64,000 bases of DNA from an uncultured Bacteroidales bacterium (GTDB lineage: Bacteria; Bacteroidota; Bacteroidia; Bacteroidales; UBA10428): the NCBI GenBank assembly GCA_964592225.1, contig CAZQCO010000002.1, positions 18,401 to 82,400 on the forward strand, in the 5' to 3' direction. Position numbers and translations under genes: made by a program. The notes below the pieces were generated by a model, which had not been told where the DNA came from, did not search any database, and saw only the letters and a list, made by a program, of their open reading frames with translations. Below, piece after piece: positions 1,941 through 62,680 of this stretch (its first letter is position 1; each line of letters opens with the position of its first letter).

Positions 1941-3941
1941 CTATTCTTTAAAATCGATACTTAAAACTTTAAATTCAGTACGCCGGTTCAGGAAATGAGC
2001 CAGTTCCTGAAGGTCTTCGTCTTCAATGGAATTGATATATTGTTCGGTGAGTACCTGACCTTCACGAAGAAAAGGATAAGCCTCACTGTCTCGCCTATCA
2101 ACGGTTTTCGGAAGAGTTTCGCCATAACCTTTCGTTACCAGGCGTGAAGAATTAATGCCTTTAGTAATCAAATAATTCACCACCGATTGAGCTCTCCGTT
2201 CTGACAAATCGAGGTTAAAATCGTCATTACCCCTGTTATCAGTATGCGATCCGAGCTCAATAACTATGTTTGGATTATTGTTCAGGGTTTCTACTAACTT
2301 ATCAAGCGCTACTGTCGATTCGGGACGCAGGTCAGCACTGGCAAAGTCGAAGAAAATATTTTCTATGCGAATAGGTTCATCGATGGGTGGCAGATATATT
2401 GTGGCCGAGAATTCAGTACTGGTTTCTTTACCTTTAGTGGTTTCTCTTTCCTTACCTTTCAGAAAACCTTCTTTCTCTGCAAGGAAGACATAATCAGTAT
2501 TAGGTTTCAGAAGGAATTTAAATGTTCCATCAGTTCCGGTTGTCGATTCCAGGGTAATTCCATCACTGCTAATTGATTTAATAATAGCCCCGGAAATGGG
2601 TTCGTTAGTATTTTCATTTTTTACAATTCCGGTTATCGAAAATTTAATTGGAGGCAGTATGAACATATAAATATCATCACTTCTGCCCTTTCTCGATGAG
2701 CTAAAAAATCCTGCCTCACGCTCATTCTCGAAACAGATTCCAAAATCGTCGGCTGAGGAATTCATGGGATATTTCATATTAACAATATCCCAGTTACCCC
2801 CTGGAGCCTGAGTAGCCTTAAAAATATCCAGCCCTCCCATACCTAAATGGCCGTTGGAAGAAAAATAAAGGGTTCCGTCTCTGTGTACATAAGGAAATAG
2901 TTCATCCTCCGGTGTGTTGACAGGCTCTCCTAAATTCACAGGAGCACTCCAACTCCCGGAACCTGCCGAACGAGTTACCATCCATATATCTTTACTGTTT
3001 TTACCTGTACCATCCTTTATACTTCCATCCATATCCGAAACAAAGTAAATTGTATTTTCATCGGGGCTGATAGCCGGGTGCGCAATAACCATACTATCGC
3101 TGCCAAGGTTCAATGATTCAGGCTTTCCCCAATTGTCGCCACTTCTTGTTGAAACCATTATCTGGCAACCCATAGTTTTATTTTTACTTGATTCACAGCG
3201 TGTGAAGTACATTCGTGAATAATCACTGTTAATTATAGGAGTTCCTTCTTCATCCTCCGTATTAATTTCCTCTGAAAGAGGTAACGGAGTACTCCATGCG
3301 CCCTTTCTGTCCATTGTCGACAGAAAAATGTCGGAGAAATTCTGTCCTGTCCCTCCATGCTCTTTTTTTCCATAGGTTTCTTCGCGCGAGGAAGTAAAAT
3401 ATACTTCCCTGTAGTCGCCACTGGCATAGGTTGGGCTAAAATCATTCATTTTCGAATTAAAGTATTTCATTTCTTCAACAACATACCCGGTGGGAAATTC
3501 TAACCATTCCAAAGCCAAATCGCAGGATAAAATTCCATCAGTTGCACGGGAATCTCCTGGTACAAGTTCTTTGTAATTGCTGAACTGCTCCTTGGCCTCT
3601 TCATATTCGCCAATCATTTTGAGCATTTCGGCATAGTAAAGCGTAGCAATAGGATCTTCGTAATTTTTGTTAAGTACCTTTTTATACCACATGGCAGCTT
3701 GCTTGGGTTCGTTGATGTGTCTGTAACATTCCCCGATAAAAAAAGTAATGCGGACTTTTTCCTTTTTATCTGTAATCTTCTGGTAGGCATCCTTAAAAAT
3801 ATCTATCGCCTGAAAATATTCACCGGCTTCGTATGTTTCATAAGCCCGCTGAAGTCTTTTGTTTTGCGCATCTACTTCGAATGTCGAAATCAACATCAAA
3901 CCAAAAACAGCAATTATTATTGAAATTTTCATATTTCTCAT
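1941..3941 (-). CDS. PorE-like OmpA-family protein (TPR, PD40 propeller, carboxypeptidase-regulatory-like, OmpA_C)
   Basis: N-terminal TPRs, PD40 repeats (VNTPEDELFPY, SSNGHLGMGGLDIF), C-terminal OmpA motif (SHTDNRG, LSERRAQSV, NRRTEF). Confidence 0.85.
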   Translation of the reverse strand: MRNMKISIIIAVFGLMLISTFEVDAQNKRLQRAYETYEAGEYFQAIDIFKDAYQKITDKKEKVRITFFIGECYRHINEPKQAAMWYKKVLNKNYEDPIATLYYAEMLKMIGEYEEAKEQFSNYKELVPGDSRATDGILSCDLALEWLEFPTGYVVEEMKYFNSKMNDFSPTYASGDYREVYFTSSREETYGKKEHGGTGQNFSDIFLSTMDRKGAWSTPLPLSEEINTEDEEGTPIINSDYSRMYFTRCESSKNKTMGCQIMVSTRSGDNWGKPESLNLGSDSMVIAHPAISPDENTIYFVSDMDGSIKDGTGKNSKDIWMVTRSAGSGSWSAPVNLGEPVNTPEDELFPYVHRDGTLYFSSNGHLGMGGLDIFKATQAPGGNWDIVNMKYPMNSSADDFGICFENEREAGFFSSSRKGRSDDIYMFILPPIKFSITGIVKNENTNEPISGAIIKSISSDGITLESTTGTDGTFKFLLKPNTDYVFLAEKEGFLKGKERETTKGKETSTEFSATIYLPPIDEPIRIENIFFDFASADLRPESTVALDKLVETLNNNPNIVIELGSHTDNRGNDDFNLDLSERRAQSVVNYLITKGINSSRLVTKGYGETLPKTVDRRDSEAYPFLREGQVLTEQYINSIEDEDLQELAHFLNRRTEFKVLSIDFKE

Positions 3942-4232: not shown

Positions 4233-7200
4233 ATGTATATAAGACTAAAAGTGATTAAGTGGAGCGTGTTTATAATATTTCTTCTGCAAGTTTTTATCAG
4301 TTATGGAATATCTCCTGATAAACTACGATTTAAGTATCTGACTGAAGAAAATGGACTAACCAACAGCTATATATACAGTATAGATCAGGACCGAAATGGT
4401 TTTATCTGGATAGGTACAGAAAACGGATTGTACCGTTACGACGGGTATCGTTTTAAGCATTACCTCAATTTTCCGGGCGATACAACAAGTATAAATTCCA
4501 ATGTTGTATTTAAACTTTATACTGATACTCACTATAATATATGGGTTGGTACCTTTATGGGAATCATGAGATATAATGAAGAAAATGACAGCTTTTATGA
4601 TTTTAATTTTCCCACAAACTACCGAAACGGATTACCTGTTCCTATTAAGGGTATAACCGAAAATACTGATAGTACCGTTATTGTATCAACCGATTTGGGG
4701 ATTGTCCTGATAGATCCGGTTAATTATAATACAAGGTTCATCCGATCTGGTTCCTCTGAATGCAATTATATCGGAAATAATATTACAACCTATTATGTTG
4801 ACCGACAAGGAAATCATTGGATTGCCACGGAAGCCGGAATTACCAAAATCGATGCTATAACATCTAAAATAAAATATTACAGACTAAATGAATATGCACT
4901 TAAGAAATTCTCTACTACTTACATACATGATATTTACCAGGATAGTCAATCTAACATCTGGATAGCAACACGTGAAGAAGGAGTCTTTATGAAATCCGGG
5001 TCATCGGAAATATTCAGGCAATATTATTATATAGAGAATGATAAAAATAGTCTGGGAAGTAATGAGACCTATGAAATATATGAAGATAAGGAAGAGCAGA
5101 TATGGATTAGCACAAATGGTGGCGGACTTAATTTATACAACCGTTTTACTAAAGATTTTATCAGAATAAAGCATGCTGCCAGTGAAAAGAACAGTCTACT
5201 CAATAATAATGTACGAACTATATTCGAGGACTTCCAGGGTAATCTATGGATTGCTTCATTTCAGGCAGGTGTTAATATTTATATCAACCATCCCCAATTA
5301 TTCAGATACTATGATATTAGTACTGATCAGCCCATCGATTATCAAAGTTCCACGGTTTGTTCAATATGTCAGTACGATGATACCAAACTATGGATTGGCA
5401 CCGATGGTGGAGGATTAAAACTACTGGACAGAAACAAGGGTACATTAAAAACATTCCTGCCTGAAAAAAACGTTTCCGGGAGTTTTCCTGATAAGGTTGT
5501 AATGACCATATACAAAGACAGATATAACGACTACTGGTTTGGAACCTACCAGGGAGGACTGGTGAAATATGATAAAAAGAGTCGAAATTTTTATTCTTAT
5601 CAAAACAATCCTTCTAATCCGTATAGCATCGGGAGCAATTTCGTTACTTCCATCATTGAGGATCAGAGGGGTAATTTCTGGGTTGGCACCAATGGCGGGG
5701 GTTTAAATCTCTATGATAGAAATACCAAAGAATTCAGGGCCTTTTTATACAATCCTGATGATACGAATTCATTGGTTGATAATTTCATAAATGATATAAT
5801 TGAAGATCACCAGGGAAACCTCTGGATAGGTACTTTTTGGGGTTTAAGCCGCTATGACATTCAGAAGTTTCGATTTTTTAACTATCACAGCGAAAAAACA
5901 AAAAGCTATTCACTTAGTCATAATACCGTTTTCTGTCTTTATAAAGACTCAAAGGATCGTTTATGGATAGGAACCCGGAATGGTTTAAATCTGTACAATT
6001 ACGAAGAAGATCGTTTTTACTATTTTTCTTTAGAAGGATTGTCGGGATGTTCTATATACGGCATATTGGAAGATGATCAGAATAATCTTTGGATCAGCAG
6101 TAACAGAGGACTAACAAAGTTTAATCCCGAAACACAGCAAATCCTCAATTTTTCAGAGTCTGATGGTCTCCAGGGCAATGAATTCTTCAGAAATTCATGT
6201 TATAGAGGAACACATGGAGAATTATTCTTTGGTGGAATTAATGGATTCAATGCGTTTTTTCCTGAAAAAGTCAAACAAAGAGAGTTTATACCCAATGTTG
6301 TAATTACTAATTTCAGAATATTCGATGAGGTAGTCCCGGTTGGCAAGCTTGACGACGGAAGAATAATTCTTGATCGTTCAATAAGTAAAACTTCAGCGAT
6401 TTTGCTTCGGTATTCCGATAAGGTTTTCTCCTTTGAGGTTGCCGCTCTCGATTTTATCACTCACGAAAACATGGTATATGCATACAAAATGGATGGATTC
6501 GATGAAGGATGGAATTATACCAATGCTGAGTATCCTGTAATTACCTATACAAATCTGAGTGCCGGTGATTATACGCTACTTATCAAAGCAGCCAATAGAA
6601 ATATTGTCGATCAGATCAATCAGTATACCCAGCTACGGATTAAAATTACTCCACCTTTCTGGAAATCATGGTGGGCCTATCTTCTCTATGTTTTCGCGTT
6701 ATTGATTTTATCTTATTATTTCTGGCGATTGACCCTTCAGCGAATTAAGGAAAGAGAACAAGTACGGCTTGAAATCATTAAGCGAGAGAAAGCTGAAGAG
6801 TTGAATCAGGCGAAACTTCGTTTCTTTACTAATATATCACACGAATTCCGAACACCTCTCACACTTATTCTCGGACCGCTTGAGCAATTGCTCAGGAAAG
6901 GAGTAGAAATTCAACCTTTTCAAAAGCAATTAAATATTATGCTTAAGAACGCTCGTCGCATGCTACGCCTTATTAATCAATTGCTCGACTTTCGTAAAAT
7001 TGAGGGAGGAAAAATGAGGCTGAAAGCGGAATATACTGATATAGTAAAATTCATACATGATATCATTCATTCCTTCGAGGAATATGCTATTGAGAAGCAA
7101 ATCAATTTTAAACTCCTGACACCGGTTGATAGTTATATGCTCTGGTTCGATCCTGATAAAATGGATAAAATACTATTTAATCTTCTCTCCAATGCATTCA

Positions 7201-9565: not shown

Positions 9566-10738
9566 ATGAAAACATTTGATGAACGATTAAAATACCTCCA
9601 AAAGAATCACGAAACTCTTATAAAGAGAAAGAACGAACCTATTGAATATACAAATGGGATTATTCAACGCTATAAATACCCGGTACTTACAGCCGCGCAT
9701 GCACCTATACACTGGCGTTACGACCTAAATCCCAAGACAAATCCTTTCCTGATGGAACGCATAGGGATAAACGCCACATTCAATGCCGGAGCTATAAAAC
9801 TCAATAACAAATACCTGTTAATAGTACGTGTAGAGGCCGTTGATCGCAAATCGTTCTTTGCAGTGGCCGAAAGCAGTAATGGTATTGATAATTTTCGTTT
9901 CTGGGAACGTCCCATCACCATGCCTGAAACTAACAAACCGGATACGAATGTTTACGATATGCGTATTATTCAACACGAAGATGGCTGGATGTACGGACTA
10001 TTCTGTGCCGAACGACACGATCCTGCATACCCCGATGATCCATCAGCAGCGATTGCCAGTTGTGGTATAACCCGCACAAAGGATCTTTTAAACTGGGAAC
10101 GATTACCTGACTTAATAAGTCATTCAGGGCAACAAAGGAACGTTGTACTTCATCCTGAATTCATAAATGGAAAATATGCGCTTTACACGCGTCCACAGGA
10201 TGGATTTATAGAGACCGGTTCGGGTGGAGGAATTGGTTTTGGATTTACCGATAGAATGGAAAAGGCTGAAGTACAAGAAGAGGTAGTAATCGACCCGAAA
10301 GTCTATCATACCATAACTGAAGTTAAAAACGGACTGGGCTCTGCTCCGATAAAAACTTCTAAAGGCTGGCTACAGTTGGCACATGGTGTGCGCAACACTG
10401 CTGCCGGTCTGCGATATGTGTTATATGCATTTATGACCGATCTGAATAATCCTTCGAAAGTAATTCATCGTCCGGCAGGATATTTACTGGCACCTGAAAA
10501 TGAAGAACGTGTTGGCGACGTATCAAATGTCCTATTTGGAAATGGCTGGATTTGTGACGATGATAATACAATCTATTTATACTATGCCAGTTCCGACACA
10601 CGCTTACATGTTGCCACCACCTCTGTCGACCGCCTTATTGATTATTGTAAAAATACACCCGAAGATGGATTGCGATCGGCCAAAACTGTTGAAACAATCA
10701 CTAAGATGATAGATAAAAACAAGGCTTTTCTTAAGTAA
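9566..10738 (+). CDS. GH130 4-O-beta-D-mannosyl-D-glucose phosphorylase
   Basis: [41 protein letters not shown] motifs of the MGP-type GH130 subfamily. Confidence 0.9.
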
Positions 10739-42269: not shown

Positions 42270-42317
42270 AAAAACAGAGTGACGCTCATTCATCGATTCC
42301 GCTCTCACTCTGTTTTT
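42270..42317 (-). terminator. Terminator after the displaced tRNA 3' half
   Basis: AAAAACAGAGTGA...TCACTCTGTTTTT 13-bp perfect stem, T run on the minus strand. Confidence 0.7.
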
Positions 42318-42319
42318 AA

Positions 42320-42396
42320 GTAGTACCACCTGGAATCCCTGCCTGTCCTGCTGAAGCAGTCAGTCAGGCAGGGAACCAGGGACACTCGGATTTTCA
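42320..42396 (-). repeat. Duplicated 3' half of tRNA-Phe with 35-nt insertion
   Basis: Without 42338-42372 it matches 42698-42739 at 40 of 42 nt. Confidence 0.92.
42338..42372. repeat. Nested palindromic (REP-like) insertion
   Basis: CCTGCCTG-TC-CTGCTGAAGCAG-TCAGT-CAGGCAGG; outer 8-bp inverted repeat, inner hairpin. Confidence 0.8.
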
Positions 42397-42771
<375 letters not shown>

Positions 42772-61014: not shown

Positions 61015-62355
61015 ATGAATAAAAGAAATATTATCATCATTGGGGCTGCAGGCCGTGATTTTCACAATTTTAATACTTATTTCAGAAATAATAATAATTA
61101 TAATGTGGTGGCTTTTACAGCTGCTCAAATACCTGATATAGAAGAAAGAAAATATCCTGCAGAGTTAGCCGGAAAATTATACCAGAATGGTATATCCATT
61201 TATAATGAAGAAGAACTGCCAAGACTAATTAAGGAGTATGATGTGCATGAATGTGTTTTTTCGTACAGTGACATACCCTATACCAGAGTTATGGCAGTAA
61301 GCGCTGTTGTAAATGCTGCCGGAGCAAATTTTGTGCTTTTAGGATGGAAAGAAACCATGATTAAAAGCACTAAACCTTTAATTGCGGTTGGAGCGGTCAG
61401 AACAGGTTGTGGTAAAAGCCAGACATCGAGAAGAATAATTGAGATATTAATGCAAAAAGGATTAAAAGTAGTGGCTATAAGGCATCCGATGCCTTATGGA
61501 AATCTTATTGACCAAAAAGTACAGCGTTTTGCCGAGGTTGGTGATCTGAAAAAACACCATTGCACAATAGAAGAAATGGAGGAATATGAGCCACACATTG
61601 TAAGAGGAAATGTTATATATGCAGGTGTGGATTATGAAGCCATTTTAAAAGCTGCTGAGAACGATCCTAAAGGATGTGATATTATTTTATGGGATGGAGG
61701 AAACAACGATTTCCCGTTTTATAAACCTGATCTGATGGTAACTGTTGTTGATCCGCATCGTGCCGGCCATGAATTAAAATATTATCCCGGTGAAGTCACA
61801 CTAAGACTTGCTGACGTAACGATCATAAATAAAATTGATAGTGCAGACTCAGACGCAATAGAACTCGTCAGGAAAAATATTGAAAAAGTAAATCCTCATT
61901 CTATAATAATTGATGGTGCATCACCCATTAAGGTCGATGATCCTTCGGTCATAAGAAATAAACGGGTTTTAGTAGTAGAAGATGGACCCACCCTTACCCA
62001 TGGAGAGATGAAAATTGGTGCAGGTACAGTAGCTGCTAAAAAGTTTGGCGCTTCAGAATTAGTTGATCCCAGACCATTTACCATAGGTAAACTATCAGAA
62101 ACTTTTAGGTTGTATCCGGAAATAGGGACTTTACTTCCTGCAATGGGCTATGGAAAAGAACAATTACAGGATTTGGAAACTACCATAAATAATACTGATT
62201 GTGATAGTGTGATAATAGGAACTCCAATTGATCTGAACAGGATTATAAAAATTACCAAACCCAATACGAGAGTTTATTACGACTTACAGGAGATAGGAGA
62301 GCCCGATCTGAATAGCATTCTTGATGAATTTATTTCAAAATACAAACTAGGATAA
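61015..62355 (+). CDS. Cyclic 2,3-diphosphoglycerate synthetase-like P-loop GTPase
   Basis: GAAGRDFHNFN, AVRTGCGKSQT, RHPMPYG, EEMEEYEPH, WDGGNND, EDGPTLTHG. Confidence 0.8.
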   Translation: MNKRNIIIIGAAGRDFHNFNTYFRNNNNYNVVAFTAAQIPDIEERKYPAELAGKLYQNGISIYNEEELPRLIKEYDVHECVFSYSDIPYTRVMAVSAVVNAAGANFVLLGWKETMIKSTKPLIAVGAVRTGCGKSQTSRRIIEILMQKGLKVVAIRHPMPYGNLIDQKVQRFAEVGDLKKHHCTIEEMEEYEPHIVRGNVIYAGVDYEAILKAAENDPKGCDIILWDGGNNDFPFYKPDLMVTVVDPHRAGHELKYYPGEVTLRLADVTIINKIDSADSDAIELVRKNIEKVNPHSIIIDGASPIKVDDPSVIRNKRVLVVEDGPTLTHGEMKIGAGTVAAKKFGASELVDPRPFTIGKLSETFRLYPEIGTLLPAMGYGKEQLQDLETTINNTDCDSVIIGTPIDLNRIIKITKPNTRVYYDLQEIGEPDLNSILDEFISKYKLG

Positions 62356-62680
62356 TTCTTTCAGCGGCTAGCTTTAAAGTGTGTTATTTTACAGGGCGTT
62401 GGATATTTTATACTTATTGTAACTCATTCCATAGGCCATTTGTTTATTATTTCACAGACCACTTCTGCTGAAGCAGACGAAGATTTGTGCTTGAATCTGA
62501 CAAGAAATAACCAGGAATCCGGAAAGTGTCTCAGATCAGTCATCTCAGGCTTGTCAACTAAATAATGATGTGGATTATTGCTTTCAGACAAGTATAAAAT
62601 TCTGGCATATAATTTCGAACTTGCCTGAAAAAGTCCTTGTCAGGATCTTAATGCATCTTAATCATAGAACAGTATCTGAC

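Follow-up and report, generated by a model that had tools for sequence, protein, structure and literature searches.

The 64,000-nt stretch of an uncultured Bacteroidales genome analyzed here (the window) carries a small GIY-YIG nuclease gene between two copies of a tRNA sequence, the second of which is interrupted by a 35-nt palindrome. All of these features lie on the minus strand. In the order of that strand, an intact tRNA-Phe(GAA) gene (42698–42771; called by ARAGORN, Rfam tRNA score 73.6 bits) is followed by a 46-nt spacer (42652–42697), the gene for an 85-aa minimal GIY-YIG nuclease of the UPF0213/Slx1-like type that consists of the catalytic domain only (42394–42651; Pfam PF01541, E = 4.8e-12), a second tRNA copy (42396–42320), and a terminator-like hairpin. 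The open reading frame (ORF) of the nuclease starts at an ATG at 42651 and has its stop codon at 42394–42396; this start is confirmed by identical proteins encoded on three other contigs (two from JGI and one from Logan). The second tRNA copy runs from the anticodon loop to the 3′ end and differs from the first, over the aligned stretch, by three substitutions and one clean insertion, the palindrome (42338–42372), which belongs to a family of the form CCTGCC...GGCAGG. Alignment with the intact tRNA shows that the ORF-proximal piece of the redundant copy (TGAAAATCCGAGTGTCCCTGGTTC; 42373–42396) extends from the anticodon loop to the first half of the T-loop and overlaps the nuclease stop codon, and that the distal piece (GATTCCAGGTGGTACTAC; 42320–42337) supplies the second half of the T-loop, the T-stem, and the 3′ strand of the acceptor stem. 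The hairpin beyond it (42270–42317), found by a repeat search, is a 13-bp perfect inverted repeat with a T-run behind it; it has a 22-nt loop, was missed by a simple terminator scan, and resembles the hairpins that follow the tRNA at two related loci, L020 and L022.

The palindrome lies exactly where the original prediction, made from this DNA sequence alone, had placed it: a GC-rich unit in the T-loop of a displaced tRNA half, without target-site duplication. On the minus strand, the redundant copy reads ...GAGTGTCCCTGGTTC|CCTGCCTGACTGACTGCTTCAGCAGGACAGGCAGG|GATTCCAGGTGGTACTAC (piece, palindrome, piece), a clean interruption of the T-loop at TTC|GATT when aligned with the intact tRNA-Phe, the T-loop of which is uninterrupted; the alignment reveals no duplicated target bases. 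The predicted proximity to the nuclease stop codon stands, at a measured 21 nt from the stop of the ATG-start ORF rather than the 22 nt given. The insertion has 8-bp outer arms (CCTGCCTG/CAGGCAGG) and an inner hairpin, with the center ACTGACTGCTTCAGCAGGA in gene orientation. Its predicted folding energy is −19.9 kcal/mol (z = −4.5 relative to shuffled sequences), and −39.8 kcal/mol when it is stacked on the T-stem. The arm pattern CCTGCCTG-N(4–30)-CAGGCAGG, for which a count against a shuffled background had been proposed, has one match in the window and none in 100 shuffles, and no other hairpin of this type occurs in the 64 kb or in the flanks of the GIY-YIG loci described below. Local GC content is 0.60, compared with 0.37 for the whole window and 0.20–0.40 in most nearby 40-nt bins. 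The palindrome is not an intrinsic terminator, because no T-run follows it; GATTCCAGG comes next, and a terminator scan is negative at the palindrome. In a search of the region with Rfam 15 (E ≤ 1), tRNA is the sole match. The tRNA and its spare piece form a 41-nt direct repeat, which in the window is divided by the palindrome into 23 and 18 nt.

Homologues of the nuclease were collected by protein search and traced to their contigs, giving 16 lineages (39–70% protein identity, window included) from Bacteroidota, one Candidatus Dojkabacteria metagenome-assembled genome (MAG), and viral contigs, at tRNA-Phe, -Arg, -Met, and -Pro genes. At least one CCTGCC-type palindrome, with arms that are mostly CCTGCCTG/CAGGCAGG, lies in a non-functional tRNA copy beside the gene in 15 of the 16 lineages; the sole exception, L062, has neither tRNA nor palindrome. 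In 15 lineages, the ORF lies between an intact tRNA and a partial copy, and in none of these loci is the working tRNA beside the gene interrupted. The insertions occupy ~10 independent points in tRNA sequence, all of them at unpaired positions of the cloverleaf, and the palindromes lie within ~35 nt of the ORF, at its end (types A and B) or its start (type C). Comparison of these loci strongly supports the link to GIY-YIG genes that the original prediction proposed.

Across the other tRNA-Phe lineages (L015/16, L017–19, L020, and L022; 62–70% identity), the same 8-bp arms are found at the same TTC|GATT point, in the redundant T-arm just 3′ of the ORF. The window, L015, and L022 have the asymmetric center in one direction; in L017 and L020 it is flipped. 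Two further nuclease proteins, P0007 and P0043, end in ...PGSLPD, the translation of cctggttc|cctgcctgac, indicating that their genes read into the same tRNA/palindrome junction. The order M16 peptidase/tRNA-Phe/GIY-YIG is common to the window, L020, and L022, with identities of 50–51% for the M16 peptidases and 62–65% for the nucleases; the adjacent methyltransferases of the window and L020 are 54% identical. Despite that divergence, the arms and insertion point are identical in all three. Neutral DNA at such divergence would be unrecognizable. The tRNA-derived flanks of the palindromes have 0–3 mismatches to the local working tRNA in each lineage, which points to gene conversion or recent re-insertion; in both cases, the palindrome is maintained and not decaying. 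L020 has two tandem whole cassettes after one tRNA-Phe (positions 2960–3845), each unit with its own palindrome, consistent with re-insertion or duplication of the cassette. Each unit there comprises a spacer with a terminator hairpin, a GIY-YIG ORF, and a T-arm piece with the palindrome; the first ORF is annotated as 124 aa, since it reads in from the tRNA.

The tRNA-Arg(CCT) lineages (49–54% identity) have the family at other positions. A 20-nt perfect palindrome, CCTGCCTGCCGGCAGGCAGG, lies in the D-loop in L021 and L023 and between positions 26 and 27 in L024, and L083 has the same arms around a 20-nt non-palindromic center. Among the more distant lineages (L057, L061, L064, and L063; 39–44% identity), L057 has its palindrome in the D-loop, and one of the three copies in L061 carries a compensatory G8A/C13T pair that keeps the symmetry perfect. 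The tRNA-Met fragment of L064 has one palindrome in its D-loop and the canonical 20-mer in its anticodon loop. L063, the Candidatus Dojkabacteria MAG, has three tandem 52-nt units (800–980) in the D-loop of a spare tRNA-Pro; each unit, CCTGCCCGAC...AT-rich center...GTCGTTCAGGCGGG, is a larger relative with a T:G pair in its outer stem. The center therefore varies from 4 to ~30 nt: CCGG in the 20-mer, 19 nt of repeat units in the window, 20 nt in L083, and ~30 AT-rich nt in L063. One hairpin inserted in another, as had been suggested for the window, is not supported: the appearance of the longer forms is that of conserved arms enclosing a center that is variable or expanded and is built of CTGC/CTGA//GCAG/TCAG units. 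The prediction also drew attention to a second occurrence of the 12-mer CTGCTGAAGCAG, at 62465–62476. The 12-mer is indeed present there, but without the CCTGCCTG arms, and so is not a family member; relatives do not conserve the inner hairpin, which makes a connection between the two occurrences improbable. The hairpin around it (cttCTGCTGAAGCAGacgaag; 62460–62481) lies 110 nt after an ORF ending at 62355 and has no T-run; ~0.01 exact matches would be expected by chance.

Close strains differ in the number of palindromes. All three contigs that encode the identical GIY-YIG protein have two tandem copies at the same insertion point, the second with a C>T change in an arm; one of the contigs, L003, has a first copy that pairs as a perfect 14-bp stem. 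In L001 (4100–4112) and L003, the left flank has changed from TCCCTGGTTC to TTCCTGGAATC, the exact complement of the right flank GATTCCAGG, a multi-base change that looks like the product expected of hairpin-templated (quasipalindrome) correction. The rewritten flank lengthens the palindrome; the matching site in the window is 42373–42382. Contigs assembled over the locus from eight salt-marsh runs include both one-copy and two-copy forms: the tandem joint, a step back by 35 nt, is present in runs X1–X3, and single-copy contigs cross the site in X4 and X7. Given these independent single-copy contigs, the single-copy state of the window is real. Palindrome copy number is polymorphic in nature, and the insertion polymorphism that the original prediction had proposed to look for in relatives takes the form of one or two tandem copies in near-identical salt-marsh strains. 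No cassette-free allele of the window locus was recovered. A short contig in runs X1 and X5 matches window positions 42302–42337, i.e., the 3′ end of the spare tRNA and the start of the terminator. It has GAACCTGAATT in place of the start of the palindrome, a diverged terminator loop, and a depth similar to that of the main strain, and may be a palindrome-free or recombinant allele of a co-occurring strain.

Palindromes of the family also occur away from nuclease genes. A scan with the right arm plus loop recovered the exact 35-mer followed by GATT on seven further metagenome contigs, centrally placed within a ~170-nt repeat that has the terminal inverted repeats GAGGCTGTCTCAAAAGCC and resembles a MITE (miniature inverted-repeat transposable element). 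Other copies of the repeat have a different small hairpin, CCCGAAAGCTTTCGGG, instead of the 35-mer. The repeat is intergenic, on AT-rich metagenome contigs, and has internal CCCCCTAAAGGGGG hairpins, and its copies are a mosaic of interchangeable hairpin modules: the exact 35-mer, CCCGAAAGCTTTCGGG, or GTCCCGCTGAAGCGGGAC. Copies are located at L006:11325–11500, L007:1144–1316, L009:166–299 and 6855–6962, L010:12349–12511 and 10507–10633, L012:5542–5731, L013:203–301, and L014:114–301. These MITE-type loci contain no tRNA or GIY-YIG gene and have no Rfam match.

Solo copies also occur on viral contigs. The core 20-mer CCTGCCTGCCGGCAGGCAGG is present on 35 stretches of uncultured viral contigs; allowing transitions in the center raises this to 53 stretches with 58 non-redundant sites, which have unrelated flanks and are drawn from contigs of 33 to 70% GC. 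Most copies lie between phage structural genes, and ordinary genes of this kind (portal, cement, and tail tube) are their only recurrent neighbors. Some copies are clustered or form mosaics with other repeats, with six on one 29.5-kb contig and three to four within 1.2 kb in L032. A search for GIY-YIG genes near solo copies returned L057 alone at E ≤ 1e-3 and nothing convincing at E ≤ 50. Target duplications are absent at most solo sites, with a few variable direct repeats in repetitive contexts. Arms of the 35-mer type were not found in the viral contigs, nor was the exact 20-mer found in the cultured phage genomes of INPHARED. Among representative genomes, which evidently do not include the source species, the 22-mer CTGCTTCAGCAGGACAGGCAGG matches only two high-GC Clostridia MAGs, in what looks like unrelated, ordinary sequence. 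A variant, CCTGCCTGCCGGTAGGCAGG, occurs at 14 non-redundant viral sites (e.g., L072:977 and L074:332 and 4512), three times on one contig within a composite repeat, CTCCCCTCTCC..GAGAGGG / palindrome / G.TGGGGGTGAGG.

Two of the phage-contig copies are located in tRNA-Met sequence. L050 (2239–2330) encodes a full-length tRNA-Met(CAT) with the 20-mer in its variable loop, which ARAGORN still calls as a tRNA and in which the 20-mer may be tolerated as a long variable arm. The same insertion is found in L027 (8570–8660), in a truncated tRNA-Met copy. Both insertions lie just upstream of a portal gene. The same 35-mer in unrelated contexts, the 58 viral sites of the 20-mer family, and the copy-number polymorphism among strains support the original prediction that the palindrome would be a discrete unit resembling repetitive extragenic palindromic (REP) sequences, and argue against random decay.

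The enzyme encoded beside the palindrome is minimal. When 17 homologues are combined into a profile, its matches are the bacterial UPF0213 structures PDB 1ZG2 and 1YWL and, more weakly, the SLX1 homologue 7WME and the catalytic domain of I-TevI. Residues Y7, Y18, G20, R28, H32, and E64, which belong to the catalytic motifs, are invariant in the 17 homologues, and the 85-aa protein has no separate DNA-binding domain. NCBIfam and PHROGs gave only weak matches to the catalytic domains of intron or homing endonucleases, with no specific family, and PADLOC gave no match. These comparisons group the window protein with the minimal Slx1-like GIY-YIG proteins. Slx1, their relative in eukaryotes, is a structure-specific endonuclease; no role has been assigned to the members in bacteria (PMC7017083, PMC1564403).

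There are several known systems with which the cassette can be compared. As for REP sequences and the REP-associated tyrosine transposases (RAYTs), the unit is a 20–40-nt, GC-rich, imperfect palindrome able to form a stem-loop; a cognate palindrome adjoins the enzyme gene, and solo copies are dispersed in intergenic DNA, with clusters, tandem arrays, and mosaics like bacterial interspersed mosaic elements (BIMEs), and without target-site duplication. REP palindromes, however, have a GTAG or CGTC tetranucleotide tag at one end (PMC3733652). Every copy in the present family instead ends in CCTG.../...CAGG with variable flanking bases, and the adjacent enzyme is a GIY-YIG nuclease, with no Y1 (HUH) transposase next to the palindrome, so the analogy to RAYTs drawn in the original prediction does not amount to family membership. 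Two more differences from the REP/RAYT pattern are the single copy in the window and an arm sequence that is common to phyla and phages rather than species-specific.

The closest parallels to the cassette itself are free-standing GIY-YIG homing cassettes that replace the end of a gene, such as the mobile ORF in Allomyces mitochondrial atp6 and phage T4 SegB, in a tRNA cluster. Common features are an ORF in a conserved gene, restoration of the gene end, a redundant fragment left behind, a tRNA neighborhood, and a PF01541 catalytic domain with conserved catalytic residues. Unlike I-TevI and the Seg proteins, the window protein lacks a sequence-specific DNA-binding domain, and we know of no conserved palindrome described in the displaced fragment of atp6- or SegB-type cassettes. 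The GC clusters and double-hairpin elements of fungal mitochondria are likewise small, GC-rich, mobile palindromes of AT-rich genomes that often lie near or inside mobile endonuclease ORFs and are polymorphic for presence, and we know of no enzyme that mobilizes them. Unlike the window palindrome, they usually have short target duplications and are organellar, unrelated in sequence, and not tied to tRNA fragments. Palindrome-associated transposable elements (PATEs) derived from IS200/IS605, and MITEs, are also short and non-autonomous, with hairpin or inverted-repeat ends and a variable interior. Elements of the IS200/IS605 type insert 3′ of a specific tetra- or pentanucleotide without duplication, and DDE-type MITEs generate target duplications. 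The palindrome shares insertion without duplication with the former, but has no conserved flanking tetra- or pentanucleotide, and no TnpA or TnpB was found among the ORFs scanned; its arms could serve as inverted repeats like those of the latter, but there is no target duplication of fixed length.

Two RNA-based systems are also similar in outline. The mobile non-canonical tRNA introns of Thermoproteales are short, related insertions in various loops of different tRNA genes, sometimes several per gene; they are found in functional tRNAs and spliced at bulge-helix-bulge motifs by the archaeal endonuclease, whereas the palindromes considered here occur in bacteria and phages, in tRNA copies that are truncated and redundant. 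Type III toxin-antitoxin systems (ToxIN-like) have tandem ~36-nt RNA repeats upstream of a toxin gene, with a terminator between them. The palindrome differs in being present in one to three copies, upstream or downstream of the ORF, and embedded in tRNA sequence, and the protein has no match in PADLOC. We found no published description of the palindrome sequence or of GIY-YIG/tRNA/palindrome cassettes in a search to which most subscription journals were closed, so an earlier description is possible.

We favor, with slightly more confidence than doubt, an interpretation in which minimal GIY-YIG cassettes of the Slx1/UPF0213 type, lodged in tRNA units, have a mobile family of REP-like palindromes as their cis partner. 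The anatomy of these loci, their conservation and association, the dispersal of the palindrome, and its variation in copy number, orientation, and quasipalindromic flanks are matters of observation; from these sequences we infer that the nuclease acts on the palindrome, with the consequences set out below. Conserved arms with a free center, a compensatory change, and the same arms across genomes of different composition argue for a sequence-specific partner of the arms; a hairpin needing stability alone would not give this pattern. Because the nuclease gene is the only constant neighbor, and by the logic of REP and RAYT, we take the palindrome to be a cis substrate of the GIY-YIG nuclease. The cassettes are lodged in tRNA transcription units and duplicate part of the tRNA, which leaves the nuclease gene between a working tRNA and a redundant piece. 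Under this interpretation, the family arms, CCTGCC(TGCC)...(GGCA)GGCAGG around a variable center, would form a hairpin or cruciform that is recognized and nicked by the structure-selective nuclease, much as REP hairpins serve RAYTs as substrate. Once nicked, the palindrome could be copied, inverted, or doubled in tandem, and from time to time seeded elsewhere, as in the phage solo copies and MITE-like repeats. Insertion into the redundant tRNA piece would break the direct repeat or target, protecting the cassette from precise deletion or re-cutting, and would also break the tRNA-like fold, keeping the spare piece from behaving as a tRNA.

A number of observations weigh against this interpretation. 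With one copy in 64 kb, the palindrome is not a proliferating REP in the window genome, and a high-copy REP there is not supported. In the DNA fetched, 34 of 35 viral loci and all seven MITE-type loci lack a GIY-YIG gene of this family. Solo copies have no target consensus (A is depleted as the first flanking base, at 6 of 84, and Bacteroidota-type sites share only ^GA), and they are not enriched in hairpin loops (18 of 39, versus 406 of 1,035 random sites; p = 0.41). The tRNA-Met of L050 limits the absence of palindromes from working tRNAs to the GIY-YIG loci, and the 76 nt of uninterrupted repeat in L024 mean that interruption of the repeat is incomplete there. Lastly, GIY-YIG enzymes are hydrolytic nucleases, and we know of no strand-transfer chemistry for them.

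If the nuclease is not the partner, the palindrome could be an independent REP-like element, moved by another host or phage enzyme, that accumulates passively in the redundant tRNA piece as neutral DNA; insertions into the working tRNA would be lethal. The many copies with no GIY-YIG gene nearby, on viral contigs and in the MITE-like repeat, fit such an element, as do the tRNA-Met insertions of L050 and L027, which have no GIY-YIG gene in the DNA fetched. Random neutral accumulation, however, predicts neither the 15 of 16 cassettes hit in a target of 30–90 nt, with none in kilobases of other intergenic DNA and the 64-kb window, nor the retention of arms and position across about 50% protein divergence, and we think this explanation unlikely. 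A role at the RNA level, or in host fitness, is also improbable in our judgment. The hairpin might disable the spare tRNA piece, stabilize the end of the nuclease mRNA, or both: in a transcript driven by the tRNA promoter, loss of the T-loop/D-loop elbow would prevent misprocessing or mispairing with the real tRNA, and the nuclease may bind the hairpin as RNA for autoregulation. Cassettes are always within a tRNA transcription unit and co-oriented with the tRNA; insertions are always at loop positions, within ~35 nt of the end or start of the ORF; the stable fold prolongs the T-stem (−39.8 kcal/mol); and solo copies sit between highly expressed phage structural genes. Yet any hairpin would serve such a role, and the same arms are found from 33% to 70% GC; moreover, the lack of a T-run excludes a terminator, and the position switches between the 5′ and 3′ sides of the ORF.

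Another possibility, to which we give little credence, is that the insertion was kept only because it interrupts a direct repeat that would otherwise delete the cassette, its sequence identity reflecting common descent. The division of the 41-nt repeat in the window fits this idea, several loci have two or three insertions or tandem copies, and recombination is plausible between spare pieces and local tRNAs that differ by 0–3 mismatches. The intact 76-nt repeat in L024 does not fit, and descent leaves unexplained the different loops and tRNAs, the flipped orientation, and the dispersed solo copies in phages. Least credible of all is a local accident, i.e., slippage or template switching of the T-stem (CCTGG/CCAGG), or an assembly artifact. 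The arms do resemble the T-stem motif, the center consists of tetranucleotide units, and the site does undergo hairpin-templated change and duplication in tandem. However, fragments of tRNA-Arg, -Met, and -Pro contain the same arms, as do 58 viral sites whose flanks are unrelated, and the palindrome is seen in JGI, ENA, NCBI, and Logan assemblies and in several runs. Slippage and artifact are thereby excluded as the origin, leaving local slippage valid solely for the change from one copy to two.

A bolder version of the favored interpretation is that the GIY-YIG nuclease and its cognate hairpin, with 10-bp arms, constitute an unrecognized, nuclease-driven "hairpin transposon/homing" pair; we regard this as possible, though doubtful. 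Such a pair would colonize tRNA units across phyla and, no less tentatively, would seed solo palindromes in phages, following REP/RAYT logic with a different chemistry. Insertion could then possibly be directed to single-stranded loops of folded tRNA-gene DNA. We also considered the palindrome as a marker of a single cassette/target junction, an idea weakened by the two or three palindromes in different loops of one fragment.

The surroundings of the nuclease genes provide some further observations. In the window, a Pfam scan confined to the GIY-YIG gene and its neighbors identified the latter as genes for a histidine kinase, an M16 peptidase, a methyltransferase, and a MerR regulator. The reading frames of several GIY-YIG genes continue into the neighboring tRNA (P0046 and P0051; L023:1739–1776; L064:1231–1267; L083:1240–1249). 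Their stop codons lie in tRNA sequence, several in the anticodon loop, and their C-terminal tails (e.g., SSMDRMEVS) are translated tRNA sequence. In L057 (820–1100), the 5′ part of the tRNA recurs after the GIY-YIG ORF; what comes next is not the remaining tRNA but structured-looking sequence and a further ORF. A tRNA gene with an intron could account for this arrangement; ARAGORN calls no tRNA there.

Bacteria very commonly encode domain-only GIY-YIG proteins (UPF0213/YhbQ/Slx1-like), for which no function is established, and for most small palindromic repeats other than REPs, we know of no mobilizing enzyme. The linkage of nuclease, tRNA duplication, and palindrome across phyla offers a testable partner for both of these orphans: the palindrome is a defined oligonucleotide substrate (20 nt), and the 85-aa enzyme is a candidate mover of the repeat. 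The loci also matter for annotation, since gene finders can misread the tRNA fragments and "tRNAs with odd insertions" that they yield. The cassette appears to be a fresh variation on the pairing of an enzyme with a palindrome, and there is a genuine chance that it represents a mobile system of a new kind. If the nuclease does recognize or move the hairpin, the pair would open a new route for DNA to move, and the enzyme would be a compact nuclease, specific for both sequence and structure, that might find practical use.

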